DNA of 64,000 nucleotides from an uncultured Candidatus Saccharibacteria bacterium (GCA_964429815.1 CAYSCM010000001.1:160001-224000), one strand, 5' to 3'; shown: positions 1-40,735, counted from the first letter of the stretch. Made by a program: numbers and translations. The notes: generated from the sequence alone by a model not told the origin.

Positions 1-229
1 TATGCCCAATACTTATGGGGTATACGGGAACTTCACATTGCCAAGCAATTTTAAGAATTAGAGAAATTTCTTTTTCATTTTCTGGAAGCAAAGCTCCCCC
101 GATCTGCTTACTATCTAACTCTATTGTTGACGCACCATAACGTTCCTGAGCCACATCTGGAGGCAAGACTCTTGAGTTTCCGAGTAATCCCCTCCATTGT
201 TCTAATGCCTCGGTAAGCCCCTCTGACAT
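1..229 (-). CDS. FAD-linked oxidoreductase (FAD_binding_4/PCMH-type), N-terminal fragment; the gene runs off the left window edge
   Basis: Minus-strand ATG at 229 opens MSEGLTEALEQWRGLLGNSRVLPPDVAQERYGASTIELDSKQIGGALLPENEKEISLILKIAWQCEVPVYPISIGH and continues past position 1. The ...P..E.E...I.K.A....VPV.P.G.GH pattern is typical of the N-terminus of FAD-linked oxidases. It is the last gene of the AT-rich island operon. Confidence 0.4.
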   Translation of the reverse strand, partial: MSEGLTEALEQWRGLLGNSRVLPPDVAQERYGASTIELDSKQIGGALLPENEKEISLILKIAWQCEVPVYPISIGH

Positions 230-290
230 GCAGTAAGGCTATCATGAACTCTCCTTTGCTGGGTGCGAACTAATTCGCTTGGAGATTCAA

Positions 291-1427
291 CTAAAAATTG
301 AAGCCGACGCTAAGCAAAAACGTTTTGAATTCGGAAGAAACAGCAGCTAATTTCTCTGCGCGAGCTTTCAAAAAATCTGAATCTGAACGAGTAGCGAGAT
401 CTGAGAAAAAATTACGAATTATGACATTCTGGAACGAATCTGCAGTAGCTTCACTGAATTTTTGGAGAGTCAGCTTGATGTCGGATATCCGCTCATTTCC
501 ATAAAACTCTAGAAGAAAGTTTGCATAGAAAAATCTAGCCTGCATAAAGACACCCCGCGTTTGATAACTTTCCTCATCTTCTCCCACTTTCGGTAAAGCG
601 TCCTGGAACGCCATCTCTCGCTCCTGAACTGCAATGTTTTTTAATACTCGGCTACTCGCGTTCATGCTGATAGCACGATAAAGACGCTGTCTTGCTACAT
701 GACTTGGTTCATATACCAAAGAGCTTTTGGACATATCGCCTCGTTTGATAAGTTCCTGAATTCTTGTGGCAAGAGTTTCCTTAGTCATTCCATTTGGAAT
801 AAAATTATTCGTTAGGAAACCGCTATATAGATATGCCGCTGAATAATTTGCGAGTGAATTTGGATATTTCTGGTCAGAAAGTAGGAAAAAATTAATTGCG
901 ACTAGACGCATATCTTCAGATGTAGAGGTTGCGGGCAAAAAAGAATTGTAGGGGGCTTCCTTGAAATTTGTTTCATAAAAAGTTCGGTCGCGAGAAGCTA
1001 TAAGAAAACCGATATCATCCAGAGCAGCGGCTATATTTGCAGGTGAGGAGGATGTATCGGCCAGAAAAGTTTTGTATATCTGCAGAGCCTCGGTTCGGTC
1101 ATTTCCCTCATTTCGGTTCCAAAGATCGAACGCTAGCATTGCATTTAGATGAAATTTTGTATTACTGTCCTGCGCCTCGATGATGAGGCTCCTCTCAGCA
1201 TCAATCGAACCATTCAAATCTCCACTATGATGGAGAGTGTGTGCTTCTTCATAATTTTTCCCGAACAATGTCATGGTGGCGTTACCTTTGTAGTACAAAG
1301 CATACCAATAGTAAACACCACCTGAAATCGCAACAACTAAAAGAATCAGAGTTAGGCGGAATGCTACTCTAGAGCTTTGCGGTCGTGATCCGATTGATTG
1401 CTGATCTGGAGAACTCTCCATATTCAA
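291..1427 (-). CDS. Hypothetical membrane-anchored protein (one N-terminal TM helix, large soluble domain); island operon member
   Basis: 378-aa ORF. N-terminal hydrophobic segment LTLILLVVAISGGVYYWYALYY. K/N/Y/F-rich composition matches the AT-rich island. Start lies 13 nt after the upstream peptide stop. No recognisable motif. Confidence 0.5.
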   Translation of the reverse strand: MNMESSPDQQSIGSRPQSSRVAFRLTLILLVVAISGGVYYWYALYYKGNATMTLFGKNYEEAHTLHHSGDLNGSIDAERSLIIEAQDSNTKFHLNAMLAFDLWNRNEGNDRTEALQIYKTFLADTSSSPANIAAALDDIGFLIASRDRTFYETNFKEAPYNSFLPATSTSEDMRLVAINFFLLSDQKYPNSLANYSAAYLYSGFLTNNFIPNGMTKETLATRIQELIKRGDMSKSSLVYEPSHVARQRLYRAISMNASSRVLKNIAVQEREMAFQDALPKVGEDEESYQTRGVFMQARFFYANFLLEFYGNERISDIKLTLQKFSEATADSFQNVIIRNFFSDLATRSDSDFLKARAEKLAAVSSEFKTFLLSVGFNF

Positions 1428-1439
1428 ACGCTAGATTTT

Positions 1440-1751
1440 TTAGCAACACTCAAGACCACCACCTTGCACCGACGCTTCACAACTTCCTCCTCCCCCACCC
1501 CCTTCAGCAAATCCATATCCCGATTCAGAATAATATGATGACTGGCCATAGTATCCTGACTGGCCGTAGTACGTAGATTGACTATAAGGAGTATCGGCTG
1601 AAGTAACGTTTGGAACGGCAAGTCCGCCAAGATTCCCTACTGATGGCACAGCGGCTGACGAATCTTTATTCAATAGATTAGTGAAGAAAATAAAAACTAC
1701 CAGAGAGGCAAGTGACAAAGCATTGATAACTAGTTGTCCAAGCGAACGCAT
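1440..1751 (-). CDS. Small membrane-anchored Gly/Tyr/Ser-rich peptide with a C-terminal Cys-containing tail; candidate substrate or precursor of the adjacent YcaO
   Basis: 103 aa. N-terminal TM/signal-anchor LVINALSLASLVVFIFFTNLL. Low-complexity repeats YYGQSGYYGQSSYY. C-terminus GGGGGGSCEASVQGGGLECC. It sits directly downstream of the YcaO gene in the same operon. Confidence 0.45.
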   Translation of the reverse strand: MRSLGQLVINALSLASLVVFIFFTNLLNKDSSAAVPSVGNLGGLAVPNVTSADTPYSQSTYYGQSGYYGQSSYYSESGYGFAEGGGGGGSCEASVQGGGLECC

Positions 1752-1801
1752 ATGTTAATAATACCAAGTTGGACAAAGTAGCCCAAGAACTTATGAACAC
1801 C

Positions 1802-3334
1802 CTATGGAAACGGGTGGGGTGTCACATTCACCTCAAAGTCACTGCTATCTTTATATCCGAAAGGATATAAACGAGAAGAGCCGAGAGGTGCAAACGTTTC
1901 ATTCATATAAAGAGAAATAAGCCCGGGAACACAGATTTTTACTGAATGATAGTTGAGTTTTCGTAGAATGGGATGACTAGCTTCAAATAAAAATACTTCG
2001 TAAGCAGGACCTCTCGCCTTAAATAGTTCCAGTAACTCATCGAGTCTTTCTCGTGGGGATCGGATAGTTTTATCTTTCCTCAAAAAAGGTACGGGGGTGG
2101 CTGCGATAAAAAAAGAAAACCTGTCGAGAAGTTCTGGTTTCGCCCATAAGAGCTGGCGATTGAAAGCACCCCACTCAAGCGTAAAAGGTTCTATTGAATT
2201 CAGGGAAGGAAGTTCGTCACTTGGTTCATTAACGTTTTGCCAAATGCGCACACTGAGCGCCTCAACAAGAGCTCGTAACAACGAATCTTCGTCATCACCC
2301 CCACACCCACCACCAAGACTTACTGCAGCTCCTCTCCCAGTCCTATCTAACACTGCGGCAATATACACCGGAATACCTACAGCAGAGTCTAGCTGCATAA
2401 AATGAACTTCTAGACCTGCCTCCCTACATTCTTTAAGATGGTGGGTAATACGCGGATCGGTGAATGACTCGACACTTATTTTTTTTGGGATGCGTTTGGT
2501 AAGCCAGTACAGTAAAAATGCATCACGTTGAATAAGTTCATAAAGTCCCGATAGAATCGCCTCATCTCTAGTGAACATTCCCCCCGCCCCATTAGTGTTA
2601 GATTCACGTAACACGGGCTCACCCTCTGTTGCGCGGTAGTTAAAAAAAACCAGTTGTGCGGGAATGAGAGCGTCACGACGTTTTGTCAACGAATAACCTT
2701 CAACAAAGTTAAAAATGCTGTCCCTGGTAAAAAACCGTCTGGGAAAACGTTTTTTCTGCCATGTCGAAGCATGTGAAGCAAGGAAAGGGTCGAGGAAGTG
2801 TCTTTTCCCGCGCTCCAAATCGCTAATTGAGGCTCGGCACAGATCTTTTTCGCGATAAATTGATAGCGGGTAACGCTCGAGTAGTTCCCCGAATACCTTC
2901 GAGAGTGCTTCTTGTATATCACCAGATATCCCCCTACTGTATCCTCCGCTTGCCACTTCTGGGGAACCATCGGTTGGAGAATTTGCTGCCCAGAGCCTTA
3001 CCGCGAAAAGACTTGGCTCCCCATGTAAAACCTTATCGAAGGTAATGTTCGGTTGCTTTAAAACTCCATTTGCATATAAGTACTGGCTCAATATTTGCCA
3101 TTCTGGAGGAATAGGATATTGCTGGGTCGGAAGAATTTCTGGATAAGAAGGCAACGGGTGGCCATGTTTCAGTCGAAGTATATCGGCGAAAGAAACGGGT
3201 AAATGATATCGAAAATGTGGGCCGACTGGGTAGCGCAAAGGATAATTTACCTGGTTATAAAAAGGTAGATAGGTGCCTAGACCTCGTTGGTTTTCGGAAT
3301 TTTTTTCTAAAACCGTAATCGGTTGGTTAAGCAT
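1802..3334 (-). CDS. YcaO-domain protein (ATP-dependent amide-backbone activating enzyme family)
   Basis: ORF listed 1802..3460. The internal Met at 3334 gives an ATG overlapping the upstream TAA, typical translational coupling, so I take 3334 as the probable start. YcaO N-terminal motif GYSRGISGDIQEALSKVFGELLERY. Core motif SNTNGAGGMFTRDEAILSGLYELIQRDAF (compare E. coli YcaO SNGMSAGNTRNEARVQGLSEVFERY). Pro-rich C-terminus ...VTPHPFP as in azoline-forming YcaOs. Confidence 0.75.
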   Translation of the reverse strand: MLNQPITVLEKNSENQRGLGTYLPFYNQVNYPLRYPVGPHFRYHLPVSFADILRLKHGHPLPSYPEILPTQQYPIPPEWQILSQYLYANGVLKQPNITFDKVLHGEPSLFAVRLWAANSPTDGSPEVASGGYSRGISGDIQEALSKVFGELLERYPLSIYREKDLCRASISDLERGKRHFLDPFLASHASTWQKKRFPRRFFTRDSIFNFVEGYSLTKRRDALIPAQLVFFNYRATEGEPVLRESNTNGAGGMFTRDEAILSGLYELIQRDAFLLYWLTKRIPKKISVESFTDPRITHHLKECREAGLEVHFMQLDSAVGIPVYIAAVLDRTGRGAAVSLGGGCGGDDEDSLLRALVEALSVRIWQNVNEPSDELPSLNSIEPFTLEWGAFNRQLLWAKPELLDRFSFFIAATPVPFLRKDKTIRSPRERLDELLELFKARGPAYEVFLFEASHPILRKLNYHSVKICVPGLISLYMNETFAPLGSSRLYPFGYKDSSDFEVNVTPHPFP

Positions 3335-5216
3335 GTTTTTTATATAAAAGCCTTGATATACCGAGTAAAATATGTGCGCTGGAATCAACCCACGCATCGG
3401 GGTTATTGTTATCGTGACGAAATCCTCCAACAAGCTTGTCTTGTCGTTCTTTAGGAACAAAAAAAAGATTGGTTTCGTCGTACTGCATTTTAGAAAGCCA
3501 ATCTAGCGCTCTAGCAAGGACTACTTTGTTGTTTTTCGAGTCAACAGCCAAAACCTCAAAAATTTTTCCTGTACCTCGGGTAAAAGAAAAAACAGAATTT
3601 TTTGTTCGAGGAAATGACCCGTCACTATTTTGTGAATTTTTCATCCAGAAAGTCACACGGTCCACAACCTCCATATTGTGGGGGAAGAAAAGATTTACAA
3701 GTTCAGCGTATAAAGCAAACTCAATACCTTCTCGTTTCTCTATATCTTGGTCAAATTTTTCAACCAAACGTCTCTCAAGAACCGGGGCTCCGCTTTGCTC
3801 CCACTGTGCAACAGGCATAATGAGTCGAGCCAGACCAAGCGCATGTGACAGCGTTATCACATCGTCACGCCAATAAAGTGGCAATAGGGACGCTAAAAAT
3901 TTTTCTGCAAGCTTTCTTTCACCGAGAGCCCAGGCTGCTTTGCCCAGATAAGCTCTAGTTAGATCAGCGCCGGCAATTTCTCTGGGGCGCCGATCCAATT
4001 GCTTTTCTATAGCCGCCATGCCACGATGTGCCGCCTTAACATAGTCCCGTCCAATCGATATTTTGGAAAATTCCGCAAGCGCCCACACAGCATATGCCTG
4101 CCTGGGCCAATCAGCAGTAGGAGAAGTGTCCTTTCGAGCCGAGACAATGACACGGAAATTTCCATCTGCGTCTTGATTAAAAGAAAGCCAGGTGGCAATT
4201 TTTTGTGCGACAGCAATTTCATTCTCCGCATTTTCTTGTACAATAGGCCCCTTTAGCGAATATATAGTTCCTATTCTTTGCGGAAATTCTATAAGATCTT
4301 CCACTTCGAAACTTACTGTCTCGGCTTTATCGATTGAACCCTGTATCGAAGCTTTTTCCCTGGCAAGGTTTAATAACAATTCGGGCATTCCGGAAAAATG
4401 TCGAATATTGAATATTTCCGGCAAAAACCAACCGCGATGGCTGCCGAGAGCCAAAAGATACCCCTTATCAGTGTATATGTCGCTGTTCTGTTTTTCTTTT
4501 TGTGTGAGCGGAATACGTAAATGACCCATAAGCGTAATTTCGATTACGACAGTTTCAAGCTCACTAGGGCCTATAGGTTTAAAACGTGGATCTCGAGCAG
4601 CCATCATAGCCGCCGTGGCAACTGCTTGTCCGATTTCCTTATTTTCTATGATGATGGAGCCGCGAAATTGTCCCTCAATCCAGAATGCTACATCAACATC
4701 ATTACGTAAGTGTAGACGCGTAGATCTTTGTGGAAGAATAAATTTTTCATCTCCATTATTGACATAATGTGTAAGTGCATGCCGGGCAATCCTGAATAAC
4801 TCCTTCTTTTCTTCATTTAATAAACCCCACCGTAATGGCTGCGGTGAAACGTTTCGCTTTTTCGACTCACGTATCTGGATAGTTGGCGAGGAATATAGGA
4901 TGGCCCACATTTCATCTACTTCCACGGATATCGGTGAATATTCGATAATAAATGTTATAGAGTCTTTGGAAGGAGGTGGGGGGATTTCGATAGGATGGTC
5001 ACCATACGTGAGCGGAAATGAAAAAGAAAAATATCTAACCTTCCCCTTCCCTCTTAAACAAAGGATGTCCTCTTTATTCGCCAATGTGCTAATAAAAAGA
5101 AAAGTTTCTTCAATTTGACGAGAAAAATGTTTGTTAAAAAATCTCTTATGGGGGGTGAAAAAAAAACCCTTTCGCATGATGAAGGCATCATAACACTCAG
5201 AAAATATCTGTAACAA
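3327..5216 (-). CDS. AMMECR1-domain protein fused to a C-terminal alpha/alpha-toroid (prenyltransferase/terpene-cyclase-like or LanC-like) repeat domain
   Basis: AMMECR1 signature LNEEKKELFRIARHAL ... RGSIII ... AVATAAMMAARDPRF ... YLLALGSHRGWFLPEI. C-terminal Q-x-DG-x-F type repeats (NQDADGNFRV, NSQNSDGSFPR, VGGFRHDNNNPDAWVDSSAHILLGI). The true start may be an internal Met near 4910. Confidence 0.55.
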   Translation of the reverse strand: MLQIFSECYDAFIMRKGFFFTPHKRFFNKHFSRQIEETFLFISTLANKEDILCLRGKGKVRYFSFSFPLTYGDHPIEIPPPPSKDSITFIIEYSPISVEVDEMWAILYSSPTIQIRESKKRNVSPQPLRWGLLNEEKKELFRIARHALTHYVNNGDEKFILPQRSTRLHLRNDVDVAFWIEGQFRGSIIIENKEIGQAVATAAMMAARDPRFKPIGPSELETVVIEITLMGHLRIPLTQKEKQNSDIYTDKGYLLALGSHRGWFLPEIFNIRHFSGMPELLLNLAREKASIQGSIDKAETVSFEVEDLIEFPQRIGTIYSLKGPIVQENAENEIAVAQKIATWLSFNQDADGNFRVIVSARKDTSPTADWPRQAYAVWALAEFSKISIGRDYVKAAHRGMAAIEKQLDRRPREIAGADLTRAYLGKAAWALGERKLAEKFLASLLPLYWRDDVITLSHALGLARLIMPVAQWEQSGAPVLERRLVEKFDQDIEKREGIEFALYAELVNLFFPHNMEVVDRVTFWMKNSQNSDGSFPRTKNSVFSFTRGTGKIFEVLAVDSKNNKVVLARALDWLSKMQYDETNLFFVPKERQDKLVGGFRHDNNNPDAWVDSSAHILLGISRLLYKKHA

Positions 5217-5261
5217 AACTAGAAAAAAACGCTTTGCTCTGGTAGGATTCGACCACTATCT

Positions 5262-5333
5262 GCCCTCGTCGTTCAATGGATAGGACGCAAGCTTGCGGAG
5301 CTTGTAATGTCAGTTCGATTCTGGCCGAGGGCG
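5262..5333 (+). tRNA. tRNA-Arg, anticodon GCG by manual folding
   Basis: Cloverleaf: acceptor GCCCTCG/CGAGGGC; D-arm GTTC-AATGGATA-GGAC; anticodon arm CAAGC-TTGCGGA-GCTTG; T-arm GTCAG-TTCGATT-CTGGC; discriminator G. The anticodon assignment should be confirmed with tRNAscan-SE. Confidence 0.7.
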
Positions 5334-5549
5334 CACATAGGGATTTTTGCGCCCGGCCAAAATCGAACGGGAAGGGGTCGGGGAACGGGAGTTCCCCGGG
5401 AGGAAAGCAGAGCGAAGCTCGTCGGAAACCATGGGTTTCTGAAGAGCCACCCTGCGGCGAGTGAGATAGCGAAGCGTCTGGCCGAGGGCGCCCATTTCCC
5501 AAGCGCCGCTTTTGTGGCATCATCCCGAGAGCTTAGTGAGGAGAGTTCG

Positions 5550-6152
5550 ATGCTCCGCAAAGCCGTCCCTATGGCGACGGCCGCTGGGCTCGTCGCACTT
5601 CTATCAGCCGCTGAACCCCTAGAGACCACCTACAAAACGCTGACCTACCGGACGTACCGCGTGGATCTTTCCGGTCGTGCAATGGCTCTTACCGAAGAGC
5701 GCTACGAGTTTGTGAGCCGCGACCTAAACGGAAGAACTCGACTGCGTCTCACGGTCCGAAAGCTCCCCGACGGAGAGATCCTCGAGAAAGACATCCCTGT
5801 AGTCACGACCCGCTTCGGCAACCTAGAGCGTCGCGGGGAGCTTCGGTGGAGCCCCTACCGCCCTCGCATCATCGAGCGTGAGTACGACACCCGCATCGAC
5901 TACACGACTCGAATGGGAGCGCAAAAGATGGCTACCGGTCGATCATTCATGCTTTCGTATGGACTGCGCGAAGCCACCTACGCCGGGAAAATCTACAAGG
6001 CCTTCAAGGTGCGCTCCGACATTTTCGAAAATAACGGATCAATGACGCGATACAAGTGCGTGTACGTGTTTGAACTTCGAACTATCGCTTTTTGTCGAGA
6101 ACAGGGCACCGAAGCTGACATTGAAACCCGACTCGAAAAGGTTGAGAACTAA
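5550..6152 (+). CDS. Secreted hypothetical protein
   Basis: The 5' part of listed ORF 5307..6152 overlaps the tRNA and is spurious. The internal start MLRKAVPMATAAGLVALLSAAEP is a signal peptide. A hairpin-rich terminator region follows at about 6154-6226. Confidence 0.5.
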   Translation: MLRKAVPMATAAGLVALLSAAEPLETTYKTLTYRTYRVDLSGRAMALTEERYEFVSRDLNGRTRLRLTVRKLPDGEILEKDIPVVTTRFGNLERRGELRWSPYRPRIIEREYDTRIDYTTRMGAQKMATGRSFMLSYGLREATYAGKIYKAFKVRSDIFENNGSMTRYKCVYVFELRTIAFCREQGTEADIETRLEKVEN

Positions 6153-6244
6153 AAACCGCCCCTGGCTAAAACAAAATCTTCGATTTTGTTTGCCCGATCA
6201 GCGCAGCTGATCTAGGGAGGCGGTTTTTTCTTTATGTGGAGTTT

Positions 6245-6511
6245 TTATGTGGAGTTTTTGCGTACCAAGGCGACGAGGCGGCTCTTTTTGCGGGCAGCGG
6301 CACCCGCCTTAATGACGCCACGCTTGGCTGCTTTATCGAGGGCCTGGAAAGCCTCCGGGAGGAGTTTCAGAGCATCGGCAGCTTTTCCGACAGCGACAAG
6401 ACGCCGGACCTCAGTCACGGCATCGTGCATCACGCGCTTGCGGCGCAGGTTGAAAACATACTTGCGCGAAGCATTGCGGATGGCCTTCTTGGCGTTCTTC
6501 GTAATCGGCAT
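6245..6511 (-). CDS. rpsT: 30S ribosomal protein S20
   Basis: MPITKNAKKAIRNASRKYVFNLRRKR... is typical of S20. Basic, about 88 aa. The start is the internal Met of the listed ORF. Confidence 0.85.
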   Translation of the reverse strand: MPITKNAKKAIRNASRKYVFNLRRKRVMHDAVTEVRRLVAVGKAADALKLLPEAFQALDKAAKRGVIKAGAAARKKSRLVALVRKNST

Positions 6512-6585
6512 GGGGAGCACTGTAGCCGAAAACCCGCCATGGCGCAACTACGCCGCAAGCGGGTTCTTTGCGGTATTATTGAGCC

Positions 6586-7164
6586 ATGATCGGCAGATTG
6601 CGCGGCACCGTTTCCGGAGGGACGGAGCGGGGCCTCATACTCGACGTAGGAGGTGTTGGTTATCGCGTCCACACCAACCCCCAAAGCAGCGCAAAGTGGC
6701 GCAAGGAACGCGGTGAGATTGTGCTCTACACCCACCTCGCGGTCCGCGAGGATTCCCTCGACCTCTATGGGTTTGAGACCGAAGAAGAGCTTTCTTTCTT
6801 TGAACTTCTCCTCTCCGTCTCGGGGATTGGGCCCAGGTCGGCGCTCAGCATTCTCGCGGTTGGAGACATTGGCGCGCTGCGAAGGGCAATCGGCGCGGGC
6901 GACACCTCCTACCTCACCAAGATCTCCGGGATCGGCAAAAAAACCGCGGAGCGTATTATTCTTGATCTTCGCGATAAAGCCGGTGGCGGCTCGGCAGAAG
7001 AGGCGGCACAACTGCGCGGCGACGTTGATGTGCTCGAAGCGCTCCGGGCACTGGGGTATGCCGGCAAAGAGGCCCGAGACGCCGTGGTGAAGGTGAGTCG
7101 GGAAGGTATGGATACGAACCAAAAACTCAAGGCGGCCCTGCGCGAGCTCGGCTCCGGCGTATGA
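6586..7164 (+). CDS. ruvA: Holliday junction DNA helicase subunit RuvA
   Basis: MIGRLRGTV... LDVGGVGYRV and HhH motifs LLSVSGIGPRSALSIL / LTKISGIGKKTAERIILDL. Confidence 0.9.
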   Translation: MIGRLRGTVSGGTERGLILDVGGVGYRVHTNPQSSAKWRKERGEIVLYTHLAVREDSLDLYGFETEEELSFFELLLSVSGIGPRSALSILAVGDIGALRRAIGAGDTSYLTKISGIGKKTAERIILDLRDKAGGGSAEEAAQLRGDVDVLEALRALGYAGKEARDAVVKVSREGMDTNQKLKAALRELGSGV

Positions 7165-8438
7165 GTATCGATTCTTTTCTCAACCTCATTCGACCTCTTA
7201 TCCCGAAGCCGCTCTTTCGCTTGCTCATTTCTCCCTACCACTTTCTTCTCGCGTACGCCGGCGCGCTGAAATATGGCTTTCCCTCAGGCTCTCTTGTCGT
7301 CATCGCGGTCACCGGAACGAAGGGAAAGACGAGCACCACCGAGCTTCTCAATGCCATCCTGGAAGAGGGCGGCGAAAAAACCGCGCTCGCCAACACTATC
7401 CGTTTTAAAGTAGGTACCGATAGCCGTCGCAATCTTTTCAAAATGACGATGCCGGGGCGCTTTTTCCAACAGCGCTTCCTTGCGCAGGCACGCGACGCCG
7501 GGTGCCGCTACGCGATTATGGAAATGAGCTCCGAGGGTGCGCGCCAACATCGCCATCGTTTCATTGATCTCGATGCGCTTATTGTCACCAATCTTGCGCC
7601 GGAGCATATAGAATCCCACGGTTCCTTCGAAGCCTACCGCGCTGCGAAGCTTTCGATCGGGGTACAGCTTGCGGCCTCCCGCAAAAAGCGCCACCTGCTT
7701 GCTCTCAATGCCGATGACGAAAATCTACAACCGTTTTCCAAACTCCCCGGCGTCGAACTACTTCCCTACTCTCTCGGGAAAGTGGTGCCCTACCGCGGCG
7801 ACGATTCCGGAAGTGCATTCACCCTCGAGGGTACGACTATCCTTTCTAAACTCCCCGGTGTCTTTAACATCTACAACATGCTCGGCGCGGCGACACTCGG
7901 GCGCGCACTCGGCGTTCCGCTCGAAACCGTGAAGCACGCCCTTGAGCGTGTCGACACCATCGCCGGCCGTGCCGAGCGCATCGAAGAAGGTCAAACCTTT
8001 CCCGTCATTGTCGACTACGCTCACACACCCGAATCGCTGGAAGCTCTCTACAAAGCATTCGATGGCTATCGGCGCATCTGCGTGTTAGGAAATACCGGCG
8101 GCGGCCGCGACCGCTGGAAGAGACCAAAAATGGCCGCTATTGCGGATTCCTACTGTGACGACATACTCCTCACCAACGAGGATCCCTACGATGAAAATCC
8201 GCGCGCTATTCTTGCGGATATGGAGAGCGGCATCACGAAGCGCACTCCGAAGATCGTACTCGATAGACGCGAAGCGATTGCGGAAGCACTTGCGCTCGCG
8301 AAAAGCGGCGGCGCGAAAAACGCGGTGCTCATTACCGGTAAAGGAACAGATCCCTACATCATGGAAGCTCATGGAAAAAAAACGCCCTGGAGCGACGCCA
8401 GCGTTACCCGCGAAGAACTTAAGAGGTTGCGCGCGTAG
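7161..8438 (+). CDS. Mur ligase family protein (MurE-like central and C-terminal domains; short N-terminus)
   Basis: P-loop VTGTKGKTSTT. Mur ligase motif MEMSSEGARQHRHRFIDLDALIVTNLAPEHIESHGSFEAYRAAK. Substrate specificity cannot be assigned from sequence. Confidence 0.6.
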   Translation: MSIDSFLNLIRPLIPKPLFRLLISPYHFLLAYAGALKYGFPSGSLVVIAVTGTKGKTSTTELLNAILEEGGEKTALANTIRFKVGTDSRRNLFKMTMPGRFFQQRFLAQARDAGCRYAIMEMSSEGARQHRHRFIDLDALIVTNLAPEHIESHGSFEAYRAAKLSIGVQLAASRKKRHLLALNADDENLQPFSKLPGVELLPYSLGKVVPYRGDDSGSAFTLEGTTILSKLPGVFNIYNMLGAATLGRALGVPLETVKHALERVDTIAGRAERIEEGQTFPVIVDYAHTPESLEALYKAFDGYRRICVLGNTGGGRDRWKRPKMAAIADSYCDDILLTNEDPYDENPRAILADMESGITKRTPKIVLDRREAIAEALALAKSGGAKNAVLITGKGTDPYIMEAHGKKTPWSDASVTREELKRLRA

Positions 8439-8462
8439 AGCCTCTGCGCGTAGCATAGATTC

Positions 8463-9413
8463 ATGGCAGAAGGAGGTGGTGGCAAAGGCGCGGGCAGCGA
8501 TGCACTCTTTGTCATCATGGTGCTGGTCGTCCTCTTTATCGTTTGGGCGGCAAGCGGTGGCATCGAGCGGGCCCGCCAAGACCCCGGCTACTTCTTGAAA
8601 CCTCCAGCGCCGCTCGGCTCCGGCGAGGTCTACGGCAGCTCTCTGACGCAAGGAGTGCACCAAACCGGAGACGCCATTTCTCAGAGCCTCTCGCAAGCGC
8701 AAAGCGAGCTCGGCACAAACATTCCCGTTGGAACACTCTCTCCGTATCACGGTCTCGTCCATCTCACGACCATAAGCGGTGCAGGTAGCTTCGAGCCAGC
8801 GCAGGAATACGTCGAGATCGACTACAACGGGGAGGGTTCACAATCTATACCCGTTACGGGATGGCGCATTGTAAGCGCGGTCAGTAATTTCTCCGCCGTA
8901 CTCCCGCTTGGCACCCGTATCCCCAACTCCGGCGCGCTCTCCTACACGGAGCCCATATACCTGCGCCCGGGAGAACAGGCCTATATCGTGACCGGCCGCT
9001 CGCCCATCGGCTACTCGTTCCTCACCAACAAGTGCGTGCCATACTTCCAGCAGTTCCAGAACTTTTATCCGAGCCTCTTTAATTCCTGCCCCTACCCGAC
9101 AGACGAGCTCCTGCGCTCACAAAACCAAGCCGTCCACACCGACAACGCCTGCTACGACTTTGTCTCGACGCTTTCCTCTTGCCGGATCTATCTCACACCG
9201 CTTGACCCATCGCTCTCCGGAAGCTGCCAGAATTTCGTCGCTAACACGCTCACTTATACCGGCTGCGTGGAGAATCATCGCGCCGATGCCGACTTCTACG
9301 GGCACGACTGGCGAATCTACCTCAATCGTGACCAGTCGCTCTGGCGGGATCGTCGCGAAGTCATTAAACTCCTCGACCAGAACGGCCGCACGGTCGACGT
9401 GTTGACCTACTAA
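8463..9413 (+). CDS. Membrane-anchored protein with a lamin-tail-domain-like (LTD) fold
   Basis: N-terminal TM FVIMVLVVLFIVWAA. EYVEIDYNGEGSQSIPVTGWRIVSA...GEQAYIVTG resembles LTD. Several Cys in the C-terminal part. Confidence 0.45.
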   Translation: MAEGGGGKGAGSDALFVIMVLVVLFIVWAASGGIERARQDPGYFLKPPAPLGSGEVYGSSLTQGVHQTGDAISQSLSQAQSELGTNIPVGTLSPYHGLVHLTTISGAGSFEPAQEYVEIDYNGEGSQSIPVTGWRIVSAVSNFSAVLPLGTRIPNSGALSYTEPIYLRPGEQAYIVTGRSPIGYSFLTNKCVPYFQQFQNFYPSLFNSCPYPTDELLRSQNQAVHTDNACYDFVSTLSSCRIYLTPLDPSLSGSCQNFVANTLTYTGCVENHRADADFYGHDWRIYLNRDQSLWRDRREVIKLLDQNGRTVDVLTY

Positions 9414-9448
9414 CTTTGATTTACTACTTAAAGAGACCTAACGGACGC

Positions 9449-9486
9449 ATACTCAAATTCTAAGCTATAGCTTAGAATTTGAGTAT
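9449..9486. repeat. 38-bp perfect palindrome ATACTCAAATTCTAAGCTATAGCTTAGAATTTGAGTAT (copy A)
   Basis: Exact reverse-complement symmetry read from the sequence. It lies between convergent genes (8463..9413 + and 9508..9987 -). A near-identical copy is at 40736..40773. Confidence 0.65.
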
Positions 9487-9507
9487 CGAGAAAGCTATAT
9501 TCTCTGG

Positions 9508-9987
9508 CTACACTCCCTGCACGTAAGCAAGAGCGATGCCCGCAGCGACGGAGACGTTGAGCGATTCTTTAGAACCTCGCATAGGGATTTCAGCGAGGAC
9601 GTCGGCACCCTCGAGAAGGTTCTGACTGATTCCCTCGGTCTCGCTGCCGAGTATGAGGAGAATATGTTTGCCCTTTGGCAGAGCCGACACGGAGATCGAG
9701 CCGCTCCCCTGCTCGAGCGCGGCTATGAAAAAACCTTTCGCACGGTACGTGTCGATGACGGGGAGCCCCGCCTCGGTGTGCTCCCACTTCACCGTTTGTT
9801 CGGCGCCGAGGGAAACTTTGGCGAAATCCGCTCGAGCTCTTCCGAAGCGGTCGAGCGGAGTTGGTGTAGTGCCAACGCAGTAGATTCTTAAAACAGCAAA
9901 AGCATCTGCGGTGCGGAAAATTGAGCCGACGTTGTGGACACTTCGGATATTGTCGAGTATCAGCACGGTCTTTCGCCGTTGACTCAT
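9508..9987 (-). CDS. SpoU/TrmH-family RNA 2'-O-methyltransferase
   Basis: Internal start MSQRRKTVLILDNIRSVHNVGSIFRTADAF (SpoU motif 1) ... LILGSETEGIS ... SLNVSVAAGIALA (motifs 2 and 3). The listed 230-aa ORF has a spurious N-terminal extension. Confidence 0.75.
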   Translation of the reverse strand: MSQRRKTVLILDNIRSVHNVGSIFRTADAFAVLRIYCVGTTPTPLDRFGRARADFAKVSLGAEQTVKWEHTEAGLPVIDTYRAKGFFIAALEQGSGSISVSALPKGKHILLILGSETEGISQNLLEGADVLAEIPMRGSKESLNVSVAAGIALAYVQGV

Positions 9988-10035
9988 GGGGGTTGGGCTA
10001 ATAGTATCGAAAAAAGAGATCCTGAGGAGTTGGTA

Positions 10036-25564: not shown

Positions 25565-26665
25565 TTAACGATTCATCGGCATGACGAGATAAAGAAACGA
25601 TGCATCGCCCACACCTCGTATGACGAGCGGCTTGCCTGGTCCACCAAAGGTAAGGGTGAGGCTATCAGTGGAGATTGATTGGAGACAGTCGGAAAGGTAG
25701 CGATGGTTGAAGTGTATATCGAGTGATTCTCCGGATAAGGTTGCGGGTATCTGCTCCTCTATTTCACCGATATCCGCATTCCGGGAGCTTAGGGTAAATG
25801 CTTTTTTGTTTGGTTTGAGCGAGAAGGATACCTGATTGAACTTATCGGAAAATACGACAGCGCGCTTAAGAATGGCCATGAAATCGGCTTTAAGGAGCAC
25901 AGCCTCAGTGACTCCCTCTTTGGGAATTATTTGTCGATAGTCCGGGAAGGTGCCGTCGATGAGCCGTGAGGTTATGAACACCCGCTTAAAAGAGAGCGAG
26001 AGTTGGTTTTTTGAGAAGGAGATATTCAATTCAGCATCGGCTTCCTCGAGAATTTTCGCTATCTCAATGGCATTTCGTATGGGAAGTATGAGGGGATCGA
26101 AATCGACGCTCTTCTTTTCGGGAACTATTTTCTCCGCAAGCCTAAATGAATCCGTTGCTGCAAAGATGAGGCTTCCATTATGGTGATAGATATAAATACT
26201 GCAAAGCTCGGGTTTGATTGATGATGTTGAAGCGCTGTAGGCAACGGCTCGTACACCACGAGCGAGTATGTCGGGTTTTATGGAGAGCGACTTTCCGCCG
26301 GAAACGTAGGGGAGGTGAGGAAAATCGGCCGCTGCTTGTCCCTTGATTGTTGTTGTACTGCCTTTGGTTTCCACCTTAAGGTTCCCTTCAACTCCTACTA
26401 ATCGCACCGGGGTTCCTGATGGTGTGGTATTTACCACTTGTGAAAGGATGTGTCCTGGTACCGCAACTACTCCTTCGGTCGAAACTTTAGCCGGTACTTC
26501 AACCTCTATCCCAAGCTCGAGGTTGGTAGAGCGAATGAGAAGGTTGTTCTTTCCTGCAACGATACAAAGGCAGGAGAGTACCGGAAGGGTAACGTTGCGC
26601 CCCGTTGCTCGTTCTGCGAGACCAATGGCCCTCTGGAGTTCTTCGCTTCGTACCTCAACCTTCAT
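25565..26665 (-). CDS. dnaN: DNA polymerase III beta sliding clamp
   Basis: MKVEVRSEELQRAIGLAERA..., three-domain length (366 aa), immediately downstream of dnaA. Confidence 0.9.
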   Translation of the reverse strand: MKVEVRSEELQRAIGLAERATGRNVTLPVLSCLCIVAGKNNLLIRSTNLELGIEVEVPAKVSTEGVVAVPGHILSQVVNTTPSGTPVRLVGVEGNLKVETKGSTTTIKGQAAADFPHLPYVSGGKSLSIKPDILARGVRAVAYSASTSSIKPELCSIYIYHHNGSLIFAATDSFRLAEKIVPEKKSVDFDPLILPIRNAIEIAKILEEADAELNISFSKNQLSLSFKRVFITSRLIDGTFPDYRQIIPKEGVTEAVLLKADFMAILKRAVVFSDKFNQVSFSLKPNKKAFTLSSRNADIGEIEEQIPATLSGESLDIHFNHRYLSDCLQSISTDSLTLTFGGPGKPLVIRGVGDASFLYLVMPMNR

Positions 26666-26902: not shown

Positions 26903-28288
26903 TTATTTCAACATTCCCCGTATCTGCTCTATTTCCTGGGTGAGAGTAGCATCGACCTTGAGATCGTTTTTTATCTTTTCACACGAGTGAATCACGGTCG
27001 TATGGTCGCGACCACCAAGCCGTGAGCCTATTGTGGGGAATGATACATGAAAATCCTCACGAAGAATGTACATAATGACTTGCCGCGGGCGCACCACCTC
27101 CTTTCGGCGCGTTTTTTCATAGATGGACTCTTCAGGGATGTCATAAAAATCGGCGATTTTCTTGATAATCTCCTTTGTGGAGACTAATTTTTTTGGTCGC
27201 GATGACAATTTAATAAGATTTTTTACCTCAGGGAGCGTCAAGGTGCGTCCCTTAAGTTGTGACTGCATAACGACGGCGTTGAGCATCCCCTCGAGCTCTC
27301 GGATGTTGGCGACGATGGTTCCCGCGAGGTGCTCGAGGAGCTCATGGTCGAGGAGATAGCCTTGCTGGAGCGATTTTGTCTTGAGAATTGCCATTCTCGA
27401 CTCGAAATCCGGCTCCGGTATGTCGACAATCATGCCGCCGGAGAAACGCGACTTAAGGCGGTCGTCGATATGCTGGAGCTCGGAGGGGTGCTTATCCGAG
27501 GAAAAGACTATCTGTTTGTTGTTGTCGTGGAGGACATTGAAGGTGTGGAAGAGCTCATCCATGGAGCGCTCTTTCTGCGAGATGAATTGCACGTCGTCCA
27601 TGATGAGCACATCGTACTGGCGATACTTTTCCTTAAAGCCTGTGAAATTCGTGCTCTGCACCGCAGCGAGGTAGTCCATGACGAACCGCTCCGAGGTCAC
27701 ATAGTAAATTTTTTTACCCGAATGAGCTTTTTTTATCTGGTTCCCTATTGCTTGGATGAGATGAGTTTTACCTCGGCCCGTCGCGCCGTAGATAAAGAGG
27801 GGGTTGTAAGCGATCCCGGGCTTTTTGACGACCGCTTGCGCCGCGGCGAACGCGAGCTCATTAAACGGCCCGACAACGAAGGTGTCGAAGGTATAGCGGG
27901 GGTTGAGGTTGTCGCTTTTGTTTATGTAGTACTCGGAGAGGGGCAGCTCTCCGGTAAGAAGGACATTGGGCCGTGGAGCCTCTTCTTCAGAGCGCGTGCG
28001 GCCCCGGCTTATCGTGTATTCAAGCCCGCGGATGTGAGTACTGGCGCTCCGGAGCGCCTTGAGTATGAATTTGTGGTACTTTTTTGAAAGCCAATCACGG
28101 ACGAACTGGTTCGGAACGGCCAAAAACACCACGCCGTCCTCGATGCGCGCGATCGACGTGTCTTTAAACCACGTCGTGAAGTTCGGTTTTGAGATGGAGA
28201 GCTCTATTTCGACGAGGACGTTCTGCCATAGCTCCTTCGTATCGATTTCCTCTACGACGACGCCAGCATGCGTATCAACCCCATCCAT
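26903..28288 (-). CDS. dnaA: Chromosomal replication initiator DnaA
   Basis: Walker A GATGRGKTHLIQAIGN, sensor motifs, C-terminal DNA-binding domain ...TLTQEIEQIRGMLK. Confidence 0.92.
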   Translation of the reverse strand: MDGVDTHAGVVVEEIDTKELWQNVLVEIELSISKPNFTTWFKDTSIARIEDGVVFLAVPNQFVRDWLSKKYHKFILKALRSASTHIRGLEYTISRGRTRSEEEAPRPNVLLTGELPLSEYYINKSDNLNPRYTFDTFVVGPFNELAFAAAQAVVKKPGIAYNPLFIYGATGRGKTHLIQAIGNQIKKAHSGKKIYYVTSERFVMDYLAAVQSTNFTGFKEKYRQYDVLIMDDVQFISQKERSMDELFHTFNVLHDNNKQIVFSSDKHPSELQHIDDRLKSRFSGGMIVDIPEPDFESRMAILKTKSLQQGYLLDHELLEHLAGTIVANIRELEGMLNAVVMQSQLKGRTLTLPEVKNLIKLSSRPKKLVSTKEIIKKIADFYDIPEESIYEKTRRKEVVRPRQVIMYILREDFHVSFPTIGSRLGGRDHTTVIHSCEKIKNDLKVDATLTQEIEQIRGMLK

Positions 28289-28382
28289 AGTGGTCCTAGT
28301 ATCGCACCGCCCCGCGGACCGTCAAACTTGCGTTAAAACGGCCGATATGGTACTAACGTGTGTATAACCTGTTGAAAATTTC

Positions 28383-28520
28383 GTGCCGAAACGAACCTAT
28401 CAACCCAAGAAGCGAAAACGCGCCCGTACCCACGGGTTCCTTGCTCGTACGCGTTCCCGAAAAGGAGGGAACGTTCTTGCACGCCGCCGCCGGCGCGGCC
28501 GGCGGCGTCTCTCTGTTTAG
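28383..28520 (+). CDS. rpmH: 50S ribosomal protein L34
   Basis: GTG start. [45 protein letters not shown] matches L34. Not in the ORF track (<60 aa). Precedes rnpA as usual. Confidence 0.8.
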
Positions 28521-28528
28521 GTTTTTCG

Positions 28529-28864
28529 ATGCTTCGGAAAAAAAATAGGCTAACCCGCGCCCACTTTGCGGGACTTGCCTCCGGGAGCATTTTCCAGAGA
28601 CCCTCTATGACCCTTCGTTTACGTACAGGGCAGGGAGAGAGCCGCTTCGCCGTTGTTGTTTCCTCGGCCGTTTCTAGAAATGCGACGAGTCGCAACTATT
28701 TGCGGAGAGTCCTCTACGGTGCGCTACGTTTCCACTGGCCGAAGCTAAAAAAAGGCCTCAATGGAGCCATATTTTTGAAAAAACACGCTGTGAACCTCCG
28801 GCCCAATGAGCTCAAGGAAGAGCTTAAAGATCTCTTGAACGTAAGCCGCAGCCTCACTCCGTAG
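28529..28864 (+). CDS. rnpA: RNase P protein component
   Basis: Basic 111-aa protein with RLRTGQGESRFAVVVSSAVSRNATSRNYLRR (RnpA RNR-motif region). Position after rpmH. Confidence 0.75.
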   Translation: MLRKKNRLTRAHFAGLASGSIFQRPSMTLRLRTGQGESRFAVVVSSAVSRNATSRNYLRRVLYGALRFHWPKLKKGLNGAIFLKKHAVNLRPNELKEELKDLLNVSRSLTP

Positions 28865-28917
28865 GCTACTTCCTTGGGAAAATTGTGGAATACCCTGAGA
28901 GCGGCTAGAATAGCCAA

Positions 28918-35853: not shown

Positions 35854-36489
35854 CTATAGGTTCGCTGCGATCGGCTTTTCGAGCTCACCGGGGTTGAAGA
35901 GTTTGTAGTAAAGCTCGATGGCTTCCTCGGTGCCTAAGGTCGCGACCCTAACTCCGGTGCGCACGAGCCCTTGCTCGACGACCGCGACGCGTTGCTCAAG
36001 TTGGGTGCGGCTCTCTTCGAACGTCGCGGCGGCCTCCTCCTTCGTTTTTTTGCCGAAGCTCGGGAGCGTTGGGAGCCCGCTTTTTCCCACGGAGAGCACC
36101 GCCGGCGAGTACGGCACAACGATAAAGAAATTTTTCGTCATAATGTTGGCCTGCTCGACGAAGCTTTTTATGAAATCAATGTACTCGCGTGTCTGGATTT
36201 TCATAAGCTCGGTGGTCTGCTCTTTGTACTTTCCCTCAAGGAGCGCCACGTAGGGGCGGATATCGAGCTGGCGTGATTCGATGAATATCTGGATGGAAAA
36301 GTCGAGCGAGTTGAGGAAGTTTTGGAACTGCGCGAGGATGGCGGTCTGTTCGTCGGCGGATTTAAGCGCAAAATTGAGCGAGGAGGCGATGAGAATGGAG
36401 CGCAACCCTCCGTCCTTGAGGACCACGATGCCATCACGCACCTCCTTGATGGGCACGAACTCCTGGCTTGCTTTTCCGGCGACGGCCAT
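35854..36489 (-). CDS. VirB4 N-terminal domain encoded as a separate ORF
   Basis: GIVVLKDGGLRSILIASSLNFALKSADEQTAILAQFQNFLNSLDFSIQIFIESRQL matches the conserved VirB4 N-terminus. Its stop lies 2 nt before the ATG of the ATPase ORF, in a different frame. Confidence 0.6.
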   Translation of the reverse strand: MAVAGKASQEFVPIKEVRDGIVVLKDGGLRSILIASSLNFALKSADEQTAILAQFQNFLNSLDFSIQIFIESRQLDIRPYVALLEGKYKEQTTELMKIQTREYIDFIKSFVEQANIMTKNFFIVVPYSPAVLSVGKSGLPTLPSFGKKTKEEAAATFEESRTQLEQRVAVVEQGLVRTGVRVATLGTEEAIELYYKLFNPGELEKPIAANL

Positions 36490-36495
36490 GGTGAT

Positions 36496-36909
36496 TTAGC
36501 GATAGGCGCCCGTTTTCTCCTTTATATCGAGGCTCCAGGCGAGATCCTTAAGTTTGCTCTCCGAGAGCTTAGGCACGACGATAGTCGCCTCCAGTTTCGT
36601 CTCCGGAGTGGCTTTTGCGGCGGCTTTGGGAACAACCTTTTTCCAGAGGTAGAGCCGGCCGCGCATCATGTAGTAGAAGGCCGCCTCGAGAGTCTCGATG
36701 AACGGACGATTATTTATCTTATAGAACGCAAGTGCAGCGGAAAGCGCGGCGACCGGAATACCAAGGAGTATCACGAGAAAAAGTGGCAGAAAAACGTAGA
36801 GAATGGCGATCACTCCTCCACCGCCGGCGAGGTAGACAAACTGGCGGAACGTGAGGGGCCCCACTATCTTGTCTTCCACCTCAATGAACTGCGGCACCTG
36901 GAACTGCAT
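36496..36909 (-). CDS. PrgI/VirB3-like small T4SS membrane protein
   Basis: MQFQVPQFIEVEDKIVGPLTFRQFVYLAGGGGVIAILYVF... matches the PrgI-family start (..P.fi..edki.GpLT.rQ..yl) plus two TM helices. Directly upstream of VirB4. Confidence 0.55.
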   Translation of the reverse strand: MQFQVPQFIEVEDKIVGPLTFRQFVYLAGGGGVIAILYVFLPLFLVILLGIPVAALSAALAFYKINNRPFIETLEAAFYYMMRGRLYLWKKVVPKAAAKATPETKLEATIVVPKLSESKLKDLAWSLDIKEKTGAYR

Positions 36910-36982
36910 AGAAGTAGTATACCCCGCGCAAAGCCGCATCGCGGCTTTGCGCTGTAGATTCGGCGCGTACTACTATGAGTGC

Positions 36983-37273
36983 ATGAAATTCTATACGCCA
37001 AACTATGGAAACGCTTCACACGACGCCCGTCCGCAGTTTGAAATGCGCGGCAACGCCATCTACATCACCGCGCACCACCCCGGCTTTACCCCCAAAGGGG
37101 CGGTGCTCCCCTGGTATGAAAATAGGGGCGGGAAAGTCTATGCGACCGAGCATCACCCCGAGGGCAAATCACTCCATCCGGTCTATGAAATCCGGGGCGA
37201 TAGGGTGCACACTACGGTCGAACATTCTCAGCACGACCCACTACGCCACAGCTTTGAACTCCGCCTGCATTAA
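36983..37273 (+). CDS. Small His-rich protein with three ~24-aa tandem repeats
   Basis: Repeats FEMRGNAIYITAHHPGFTPKGAVLPWYE / ENRGGKVYATEHHPEGKSLHPVYE / EIRGDRVHTTVEHSQHDPLRHSFE. Opposite strand to the surrounding cluster. Confidence 0.35.
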   Translation: MKFYTPNYGNASHDARPQFEMRGNAIYITAHHPGFTPKGAVLPWYENRGGKVYATEHHPEGKSLHPVYEIRGDRVHTTVEHSQHDPLRHSFELRLH

Positions 37274-37281
37274 AGCGAGTT

Positions 37282-37680: not shown

Positions 37681-37682
37681 AA

Positions 37683-40679: not shown

Positions 40680-40735
40680 CCGGGAAGCCTACCATTGTCC
40701 CGCTTAGAGTCAATGCATACCGTGGCGTGCATTGA

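Follow-up and report, generated by a model that had tools for sequence, protein, structure and literature searches.

What does a YcaO enzyme do when none of its customary partners is encoded beside it? The question is raised by positions 1-5260 of a 64,000-nucleotide stretch of DNA (the window) from an uncultured Candidatus Saccharibacteria bacterium (GCA_964429815.1 CAYSCM010000001.1:160001-224000), where a YcaO gene stands in a minus-strand cassette with genes for an AMMECR1 domain fused to an alpha/alpha toroid, a 103-aa protein in the precursor position, a membrane protein of the tetratricopeptide repeat (TPR) type and a flavin adenine dinucleotide (FAD)-linked oxidase. By current understanding, a YcaO enzyme depends on a partner of one of three kinds or acts on its own. 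Our analysis suggests that the cassette is probably a YcaO-dependent maturation pathway for a ribosomal peptide, of a type belonging to the ultra-small bacteria of the candidate phyla radiation (CPR, Patescibacteria) and related to the pathways of thiazole/oxazole-modified microcins (TOMM) and linear peptides that contain azol(in)es (LAP). We further propose, tentatively, that the AMMECR1-toroid protein may represent an unrecognised maturation class for peptides made on ribosomes and modified after translation (RiPPs), either as a fourth type of partner for YcaO, beside the E1-like, ThiF-like and TfuA proteins, or as a peptide-modifying enzyme of its own; that together with the membrane TPR protein it may define a CPR-wide family of exported, acidic, Cys-containing peptides led by a signal anchor; and that the variant in the window may be tailored at Tyr by a flavoprotein of the vanillyl-alcohol oxidase (VAO)/p-cresol methylhydroxylase (PCMH) type. 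The features, read from the tRNA side, are as follows:

5262-5334, plus strand: tRNA-Arg(GCG), found by ARAGORN and Rfam; upstream border of the cassette, with the GC switch at about 5250
5187-5216, minus strand: promoter-like site TTGTTA-18-TATGAT with an extended TG, from a consensus scan, within the 84 nt that separate the tRNA from the first ATG
3327-5177, minus strand: AMMECR1-toroid fusion, ATG start, 616 aa
1802-3334, minus strand: YcaO, 510 aa; its ATG overlaps the end of the upstream AMMECR1 gene by 8 nt
1440-1751, minus strand: precursor-like open reading frame (ORF) of 103 aa, 50 nt past the YcaO stop
291-1421/1427, minus strand: TPR-like ORF, 376/378 aa, 12-18 nt past the 103-aa ORF
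2-229, minus strand: N-terminus of the FAD oxidase, first 76 codons; the ORF leaves the window

The original prediction, a YcaO-centred, RiPP-like operon of five tightly packed minus-strand genes, is borne out in its layout by translation and by independent gene calls on the same contig, and in its nature by the evidence below. An alternative TTG start at 5216 would give an AMMECR1 fusion of 629 aa, and is less likely because the promoter-like site covers 5187-5216; such sites are no more frequent in the region than in shuffles, and this one is assigned by position only. Five genes are too few, however: a public Logan contig with an identical YcaO (L001) reaches beyond the window start, and the real cassette is ~9.2 kb long and runs ~4 kb past that point, positions 1-5260 being its promoter-proximal 5.2 kb. 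The identical cassette sequence has been assembled from independent samples.

The enzyme at the centre of the cassette is a YcaO by its Pfam match (PF02624, E 1.9e-47), and the motifs first read by eye, including the C-terminal VTPHPFP, are present in its translation. Its best NCBIfam model is TIGR03604 (TOMM_cyclo_SagD, thiazole/oxazole-forming), matched over the full length with an E of 4e-53 and 180.7 bits, below the curated cut-off of 219.25. The YcaO domain spans aa ~139-510 (nt 1805-2920); E150/E153/R154, E266/R270/D271 and P506-P510 are invariant among 26 homologues (up to 94 in the larger comparison), and, following published YcaO work, the Glu/Arg residues probably form the two ATP/Mg motifs and PHPFP the PxPxP of azoline-forming YcaOs. 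In the AlphaFold2 model (mean predicted local distance difference test score, pLDDT, 90.9) residues 1-45 are disordered and the remaining N-terminus packs on the YcaO domain; the model shows no extra domain, and a RiPP recognition element (RRE) or E1 domain hidden in the ~130-aa N-terminal extension was rejected. The nearest solved structures are LynD, MusD and TruD, followed by archaeal thioamidation YcaOs and McbD; the LynD/TruD/PatD type is matched in profile (E 2e-30 to 8e-28) and in Foldseek comparisons (E 1.8e-20, TM 0.65), and the second-best structural match, MusD, is an ATP-dependent YcaO peptidase. We detected 117 homologues with 33-48% identity, of which the named ones are nearly all from Parcubacteria, Woesebacteria, Moranbacteria and similar CPR groups. 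By these matches, the enzyme is a predicted SagD-type YcaO and a member of a large CPR family.

Where are its partners? The claim that the partner set is non-canonical stands for this locus: the window and a further 10 kb contain no E1-like, Ocin-ThiF-like, TfuA or McbC gene. The cassette proteins gave no Pfam or NCBIfam match to E1-like, ThiF-like, TfuA or PqqD/RRE families; phmmer, queried with the C-domains that form the N-termini of three fused TOMM enzymes, returned nothing at E<=10 from the complete six-frame ORF set of 35 loci and the window; ThiF, TfuA and PqqD are not among the recurrent families in 119 neighbour ORFs; and the models of the YcaO and the AMMECR1 fusion have no Rossmann/E1 or RRE match. 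The claim does not hold for the family as a whole, in which a dehydrogenase of the SagB/McbC type is common. Among 32 distinct YcaO-seeded loci, compared by ORF calling and clustering (a species-representative genome scan gave 30 further loci), the recurrent neighbours are:

SagB-type dehydrogenase: 24/32 loci; the L003 member scores 125.9 bits with TIGR03605 (cut-off 78.4)
AMMECR1-toroid fusion: 17/32 loci
membrane TPR protein: about 24/32 loci
small precursor-like ORF: 26/32 loci
PaaK-like or ANL adenylating enzyme: about 10/32 loci
VAO/PCMH-type oxidase: 5/32 loci

The usual order is dehydrogenase, AMMECR1-toroid, YcaO, small ORF and TPR protein, such that the B-AMMECR1-toroid-D arrangement mimics sagBCD. 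In L003 and L007, which are syntenic at the same tRNA-Arg junction, the dehydrogenase lies between the tRNA and the AMMECR1 gene; no SagB/McbC-type dehydrogenase is found in the 64-kb window or along the 17.7 kb covered by L001. The gene that the syntenic L003 and L007 keep has been lost from this genome, where it is cleanly absent. It is also missing in L012, L018, L020 and L025.

The neighbour that takes the place of the canonical partner is a fusion, as originally described. Its AMMECR1 domain is matched in Pfam (E 1.3e-12); its toroid has weak Pfam matches (TED, SQHop_cyclase_C) and a fold confirmed by a confident three-domain model (pLDDT 94.1, predicted template modelling score 0.93):

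4848-5177, minus strand: N-terminal alpha+beta domain, aa 1-110
4248-4847, minus strand: AMMECR1 domain, aa ~111-310, in which the LRGCIG motif is changed to xRGS
3330-4220, minus strand: (alpha/alpha)6 toroid, aa 320-616

The toroid carries the invariant polar residues K538, E541, R587, D598 and H602. We considered and rejected a LanC-like lanthionine cyclase: there is no LANC_like Pfam match, and the conserved residues are K/E/R/D/H and not Cys, whereas LanC binds Zn through Cys/Cys/His. Membership in the AmmeMemoRadiSam system was likewise rejected, as the TIGR04335 score (55.5 bits) lies under the cut-off of 99 and neither L001 nor L003 has a Memo or radical-SAM gene.

An exhaustive search of representatives recovered homologues of the fusion in 509 representative clusters at E<=1e-3 and in 195 at E<=1e-30, mostly of 600-660 aa; a word-indexed search gave one match, with the single sequence or with a 15-sequence profile. 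Four representatives (1043-1131 aa) are natural AMMECR1-toroid-YcaO fusions with a PxPxP-like tail. A metagenome scan seeded with the AMMECR1-toroid gave 62 loci, not de-replicated; 40 of these extend 1.5 kb or more downstream of the seed gene, and in 27 of the 40 the next gene is a YcaO. At least five AMMECR1-toroid loci with 4-6 kb of downstream sequence lack a YcaO, profile search included, and in them the precursor and the TPR protein are present; conversely, the AMMECR1-toroid gene is missing from 9 well-covered YcaO loci. The length of the YcaO N-terminal extension does not covary with the presence of the AMMECR1-toroid (medians 153 vs 149 residues). These patterns indicate that the AMMECR1-toroid works closely with YcaO where both exist and is not merely a YcaO accessory, and that the constant pair of the family, as judged from gene neighbourhoods, is the precursor and the TPR protein. 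The YcaO-less version (L058, L068, L070, L074, L076 and L084) combines the AMMECR1-toroid with a precursor of the common design and the membrane TPR protein, often along with a rhodanese-like membrane protein, its precursors ending in an acidic two-Cys loop such as ...DCDDGDSCE. In another CPR genome (L036:5749-12890) a cluster between rpsL-rpsG and fusA encodes a nitroreductase, a 471-aa YcaO, a 1056-aa AMMECR1-toroid-YcaO fusion, a precursor and a TPR protein.

The candidate substrate is the 103-aa ORF, whose precursor position is supported by a conserved gene of the same type in 26/32 loci. It divides into two parts:

1596-1751, minus strand: leader, aa 1-52; basic N-terminus, ~19 hydrophobic residues (signal-anchor-like) and a 29-aa spacer that ends in T-S-A
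1440-1595, minus strand: core, aa 53-103 and the stop; DTPYSQSTYYGQSGYYGQSSYYSESGYGFAEGGGGGGSCEASVQGGGLECC

The core holds 8 Tyr, 9 Ser, 14 Gly, 3 Cys and 2 Thr and no Lys or Arg; its Tyr residues lie in SYYGQS-type repeats and its C-terminus is SCEASVQGGGLECC. The window precursor is 43% identical to the L003 orthologue (tblastn E 4e-19), the L003 and L007 orthologues are equally Tyr-rich, and the C-terminal C-E-x8-E-C loop recurs in L003, L007, L016, L034 and the YcaO-less loci. In the family at large, 29 peptides from 27 loci share one design: 1-6 basic residues, a hydrophobic segment of 17-20 residues, a spacer of 16-37 residues and the motif A-x-A/D-x-P (the slash marks the predicted cut), in which position -1 is always Ala and position -3 is Ala, Val or Thr, fitting the signal-peptidase-I rule. 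The 29 cores (21-98 residues) are essentially K/R-free and rich in Asp/Glu, Gly, Ser and Cys; some resemble microcin B17, as in GGGSCGESCDGCGSGGAC or in L036, whose core has 22 Cys. On L001 and L036 the precursor was overlooked by gene callers or placed in the wrong frame: a 41-aa ORF in another frame was called at L001:7930-8055 (window 1424-1630) instead of the 103-aa precursor, and the true precursor of L036 (22 Cys, motif TAHADVP) lies in another frame than the called 99-aa gene. Annotations of public CPR genomes therefore probably under-report precursors of this kind.

The next gene encodes the predicted 378-aa membrane protein (376 aa from the ATG at 1421), which indeed has one transmembrane (TM) segment, at its N-terminus. 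As a single sequence it has no Pfam or NCBIfam match; its family profile matches TPR proteins (9qhb, E 4e-25; BamD), other members match TPR Pfams, and in most related loci the gene comes immediately after that of the precursor. The oxidase N-terminus that follows belongs to PF01565 (FAD_binding_4) and matches L001:9250-10989 at 100%; the full flavoprotein has 579 aa, 76 of them inside the window. It matches p-cresol methylhydroxylase (PDB 1dii/1wve, E 3e-46; 9fge, E 5e-47) and vanillyl-alcohol and eugenol oxidases (E 1e-28 to 1e-34), and the phenolate Tyr of the GYG motif is conserved; by these profile matches, it is a predicted VAO/PCMH-type enzyme. An oxidase of this type accompanies all three strongly Tyr-rich cores of shared synteny (L001, L003 and L007).

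Taken together, these features suggest the following pathway. The 103-aa protein would be the substrate, its signal anchor and spacer serving as leader and export signal, and the modified part would be the 51-aa acidic Tyr/Ser/Gly core that ends in the Cys loop. The cytoplasmic SagD-type YcaO, using ATP, would cyclodehydrate Cys, and perhaps Ser/Thr, to azolines; because the genome has no SagB-type dehydrogenase, the rings would remain azolines. The AMMECR1-toroid, translationally coupled to YcaO, would fill the place of the missing E1-like/ThiF-like partner: we propose that it physically works with YcaO, because natural fusions exist, and that it probably has a peptide-directed activity of its own, because it is found with the same peptide/TPR pair in YcaO-less loci. 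The VAO/PCMH-type flavoprotein would oxidise the Tyr-rich core at its 4-alkylphenol side chains, further tailoring would come from the sulfotransferase-like and PaaK-like enzymes encoded farther along the cassette, the membrane TPR protein would handle the anchored peptide, and the peptide would be exported and cut at T-S-A/D53, a site of the signal-peptidase-I type. We infer azoline formation, the role of the AMMECR1-toroid, Tyr oxidation, export with cleavage and TPR handling from sequences and their matches.

Several points weigh against this scheme. The TIGR03604 score falls short of its cut-off, as given above, and the azoline chemistry and the rest of the pathway are predicted from sequence alone; azolines are, moreover, labile without a dehydrogenase. 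Cys is absent from three related cores, and a single Ser is present in one, so heterocyclisation cannot account for the family as a whole. Between the hydrophobic segment and the A-x-A site there are 16-37 residues, more than in ordinary Sec signal peptides, and were the core exported co-translationally, the cytoplasmic YcaO could not reach it. The AMMECR1-toroid is not an obligate YcaO partner, because YcaO occurs without it in 9 well-covered loci, where the N-terminus of YcaO has not changed to make up for its absence, and it occurs without YcaO in at least five loci. As for the flavoprotein, the C-terminal phenolate-binding Tyr-Arg pair is Gln-Arg in this genome and Tyr-Arg in L003; and L035 has a Tyr-rich core and no oxidase within 21 kb, so that the correlation between Tyr-rich cores and the flavoprotein is partial only.

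In the main rival reading, the peptide would be modified chiefly by the AMMECR1-toroid, at the C-terminal Cys loop or in the acidic core, and YcaO would perform a chemistry other than azoline formation, such as cutting the leader or the backbone with ATP, as MusD does, or amidine or thioamide formation. This division of labour would fit the loci with AMMECR1-toroid, precursor and TM-TPR protein and no YcaO, the invariant toroid residues K538/E541/R587/D598/H602 (suggestive of a catalytic or metal site), the cores without Cys, Ser or Thr, the lack of a dehydrogenase in the window, the high rank of the peptidase MusD among the structural matches to YcaO, and the recurrence of membrane rhodanese genes in the family. 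We nevertheless regard it as unlikely: the family model that fits the YcaO best is SagD, an azole-forming type, and its terminal PxPxP, typical of YcaOs that form azolines, never varies; the pairing with a SagB-type azoline dehydrogenase in 24/32 loci makes sense only if azolines are formed; many cores are of the classic Cys/Ser/Gly LAP type; no TfuA is present; and the rhodaneses carry an N-terminal membrane segment and occur in YcaO-less loci too.

Azoline formation by the YcaO thus remains our preferred reading of the first step, and the nature of the product is a further matter. The 103-aa protein might be a membrane-anchored or secreted envelope component, metal-binding or adhesive, and not a released natural product. 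The signal-anchor-like N-terminus of 29/29 peptides and the acidic, K/R-free, Cys-containing cores would suit such a role, as would the membrane thiol-redox and sulfur genes that recur nearby in the family (TlpA/AhpC-like, DsbD_TM, rhodanese), the absence of transporter, immunity and leader-peptidase genes from the cassette, its wide and vertical-looking retention in tiny CPR genomes, and a likeness to bufferin-type periplasmic metallopeptides or to protein-level YcaO modification. Hypervariable cores and cassette exchange are, however, a mark of conflict or antibiotic peptides more than of housekeeping components of the envelope, and an envelope role, which we judge quite improbable, is compatible with YcaO modification and would mainly alter the biological role. 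A decaying remnant, whose functional product was lost together with the dehydrogenase, is very unlikely: the SagB-type gene is absent here though the syntenic L003 and L007 clusters have one, but all cassette genes are intact and full-length with conserved motifs, the tight gene coupling and the promoter-like site are kept, four other loci (L012, L018, L020 and L025) likewise lack the dehydrogenase, and the same cassette sequence comes from independent samples.

How far is the system already known? By definition (PMC7136475), a LAP cluster contains a precursor, a YcaO and an FMN-dependent dehydrogenase and, as a rule, a leader-binding partner of the E1-like (C) or ThiF-like (F) type, free-standing or fused. 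The cassette has an azoline-type YcaO and a Cys/Ser/Thr-containing precursor beside the enzymes, and lacks the E1-like/ThiF-like partner and the SagB/McbC-type dehydrogenase; with two of these features present and two absent, we do not file it as a canonical LAP cluster, although it most likely works like one in its predicted first step. With McbABCD and SagABCD it shares a SagD-type YcaO with PxPxP and, in many members, Gly/Ser/Cys-rich cores, as well as the SagB-type dehydrogenase of most related loci and the B-x-D order with the AMMECR1-toroid in the C position; it differs in having no E1-like C, ThiF-like F or RRE, in the signal-anchor leader with A-x-A/D-x-P, in the constant companionship of a membrane TPR protein and, in this genome, in the missing dehydrogenase and the Tyr-rich core.

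A wholly undescribed system, as first suggested, it is not. Sharrar et al. (2020, mBio, PMC7298704) reported 110 predicted LAP clusters, detected by antiSMASH, in 93 CPR genomes, 89 of the clusters with a nitroreductase beside YcaO, and listed a YcaO, a nitroreductase, a peptidase and an 84-aa precursor; the YcaO family is therefore not unknown. As far as the portions of that report used here describe them, those clusters are very probably the same broad family, likened by description and not by sequence: they share the CPR host, the YcaO with an adjacent nitroreductase and a precursor of ~84 aa next to YcaO, whereas neither the AMMECR1-toroid nor the TPR protein comes up in those portions, and the design of the leader and the absence of a partner go unmentioned too. 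The cyanobactin heterocyclases LynD, TruD and PatD are the closest solved structures and carry fused E1-like and RRE domains, in place of which our YcaO has only its partly disordered N-terminal extension of ~130 aa. Standalone bottromycin YcaOs also act without E1-like, ThiF-like or TfuA partners (PMC7136475), but they belong to another clade with other substrates, whereas here there is a dedicated neighbour that is sometimes fused to YcaO. The AmmeMemoRadiSam AMMECR1 proteins (TIGR04335; PDB 1zq7, 1vaj) have the same fold and the RD-RFKP and LPEV motifs; our protein has Ser where LRGCIG has Cys, is fused to a toroid and to an N-terminal domain, and has no Memo or radical-SAM gene beside it. 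The flavoprotein resembles VAO/PCMH oxidoreductases in its PCMH match, FAD-binding domain and GYG Tyr, and differs in lying inside a peptide-maturation cassette beside a Tyr-rich core, with peptidyl-Tyr as the presumed substrate.

Bufferins are Sec-exported, copper-binding RiPPs that are modified at Cys by multinuclear non-heme iron-dependent oxidases (MNIO). Their role in chelation has been reported (PMC12452194). The likeness lies in the use of an export signal as leader and in a Cys-containing, possibly metal-binding product; the cassette has no MNIO/DUF2063 genes, its enzymes are YcaO and AMMECR1-toroid, and its cleavage site is far from the hydrophobic segment. Our search of the literature, which was incomplete, found nothing linking AMMECR1 to YcaO or RiPPs, no description of the AMMECR1-toroid, the TPR partner, the precursor design or the pairing of a phenol oxidase with a Tyr-rich core, and no precedent for peptidyl-Tyr as a VAO/PCMH substrate or for such a RiPP tyrosine modification. 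What is already known is thus the CPR YcaO family as predicted LAP clusters; the helper proteins are, as far as this search reached, undescribed, and the AMMECR1-toroid stands a real chance of being a novel kind of RiPP maturation protein.

AMMECR1 is a domain conserved from archaea to humans, and to our knowledge its biochemistry has not been established; the role proposed here, if true, would be a first molecular function, or functional handle, for the fold. A fourth, structurally unrelated YcaO partner would also change cluster mining, as partner-based filters (as in PMC7136475) would miss such clusters. The cassette is one of few elaborate, secondary-metabolite-like pathways kept in minimal CPR genomes, where a peptide that is modified and exported could serve in contacts with a host, in competition or in dealing with metals. 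Modification of peptide tyrosine is suggested by the presence of a 4-alkylphenol oxidase together with a core rich in Tyr.

How did the cassette come to lie here? The sharp, non-uniform composition that was noted by eye is confirmed by sliding windows: positions 1-5250 have 42.9% GC vs 54.0% for 5251-64000, and 500-nt windows stay at 0.38-0.49 GC throughout 1-5250 and at 0.52-0.60 throughout 5251-10000. The figure of about 60% GC given for the rest of the window fits only the adjacent 5 kb, the window average being 54%. Against 214 windows of 5.25 kb in the remainder (mean 53.7% GC, standard deviation (sd) 2.3, minimum 48.7), the block lies ~4.7 sd under the mean. GC at third codon positions (GC3) is 32-37% in the five block genes vs 49-71% in eight other window genes, so the shift touches codon usage and not amino-acid content alone. 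The whole low-GC stretch on L001 is ~9.2 kb long, with sharp borders and 42.5% GC vs 56.5%.

This composition, GC3 included, agrees with the foreign origin first suggested, but the tRNA-Arg neighbourhood is a conserved junction and not an integration scar. The tRNA-Arg(GCG) adjoins the cluster in L001, L003 and L007, which also have the Mur-ligase/RuvA/S20 flank in common, so the site is ancestral for the L001/L003/L007 clade. A classical tRNA-integrated island was rejected: the cassette lies at the 5' side of the tRNA without an integrase or flanking att repeats, none of the genes of L001 encodes an integrase, and the junction is present in L003 and L007; of the hallmarks of such islands, atypical composition is present, and an integrase, insertion at the 3' end with a direct repeat and absence from relatives are not. 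Between L001 and L003 the flanking genes are 65-77% identical and the cassette proteins only 30-47%, and the window YcaO is equidistant (45-47%) from L003, L006, L007 and L016. The GC3 shift and the divergence relative to the flanks point to the replacement of a resident cassette by a foreign allele of lower GC.

Beyond the window start, L001 adds the rest of the flavoprotein and two further genes:

L001:11220-11984: sulfotransferase-like protein, 254 aa; Sulfotransfer_3 match of 26.4 bits (cut-off 27) and an N-terminal GCGRSGTS loop
L001, opposite strand: PaaK/F390-synthetase-like adenylating enzyme, 476 aa

Among related loci the sulfotransferase-like gene is found only in the cassette of this genome, and it adjoins the Tyr-rich core; tyrosine sulfation by its product is conceivable from these similarities. 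No transporter, immunity or leader-peptidase gene is among the cassette genes of L001.

Elsewhere in the family, near L012, L020, L021, L027 and others, there are up to three tandem rhodanese-like genes, TlpA/AhpC-like thioredoxins and DsbD_TM, together with 2-oxoglutarate oxygenases, Asp/Asn beta-hydroxylase-like proteins and pyrroloquinoline quinone (PQQ) beta-propellers; these accessory proteins are membrane-anchored and recurrent, and suggest redox or sulfur chemistry on exported Cys/Asp-rich peptides. The window contains no dehydrogenase, rhodanese, TlpA or other accessory gene of this kind.

Positions 5477-5495 nearly repeat (18/19) the 19 nt at the tRNA-Arg 3' end (5320-5338). This sole copy, 157 nt downstream, is in the high-GC flank opposite the cassette, and may have arisen by chance or have been left by an integration or excision event unconnected with the cassette. 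A second lower-GC stretch at 36000-46000 (47-51% GC) has large minus-strand ORFs, among them a 998-aa protein with LCAT and MBG domains and ORFs of 814, 300 and 553 aa without a Pfam match. The genes dnaN (25565-26665) and dnaA (26903-28288) are both on the minus strand, and cumulative GC skew is lowest at 28-30 kb, which makes the gap that follows dnaA (28289-28917), ~23 kb from the YcaO cassette, the probable site of the replication origin.

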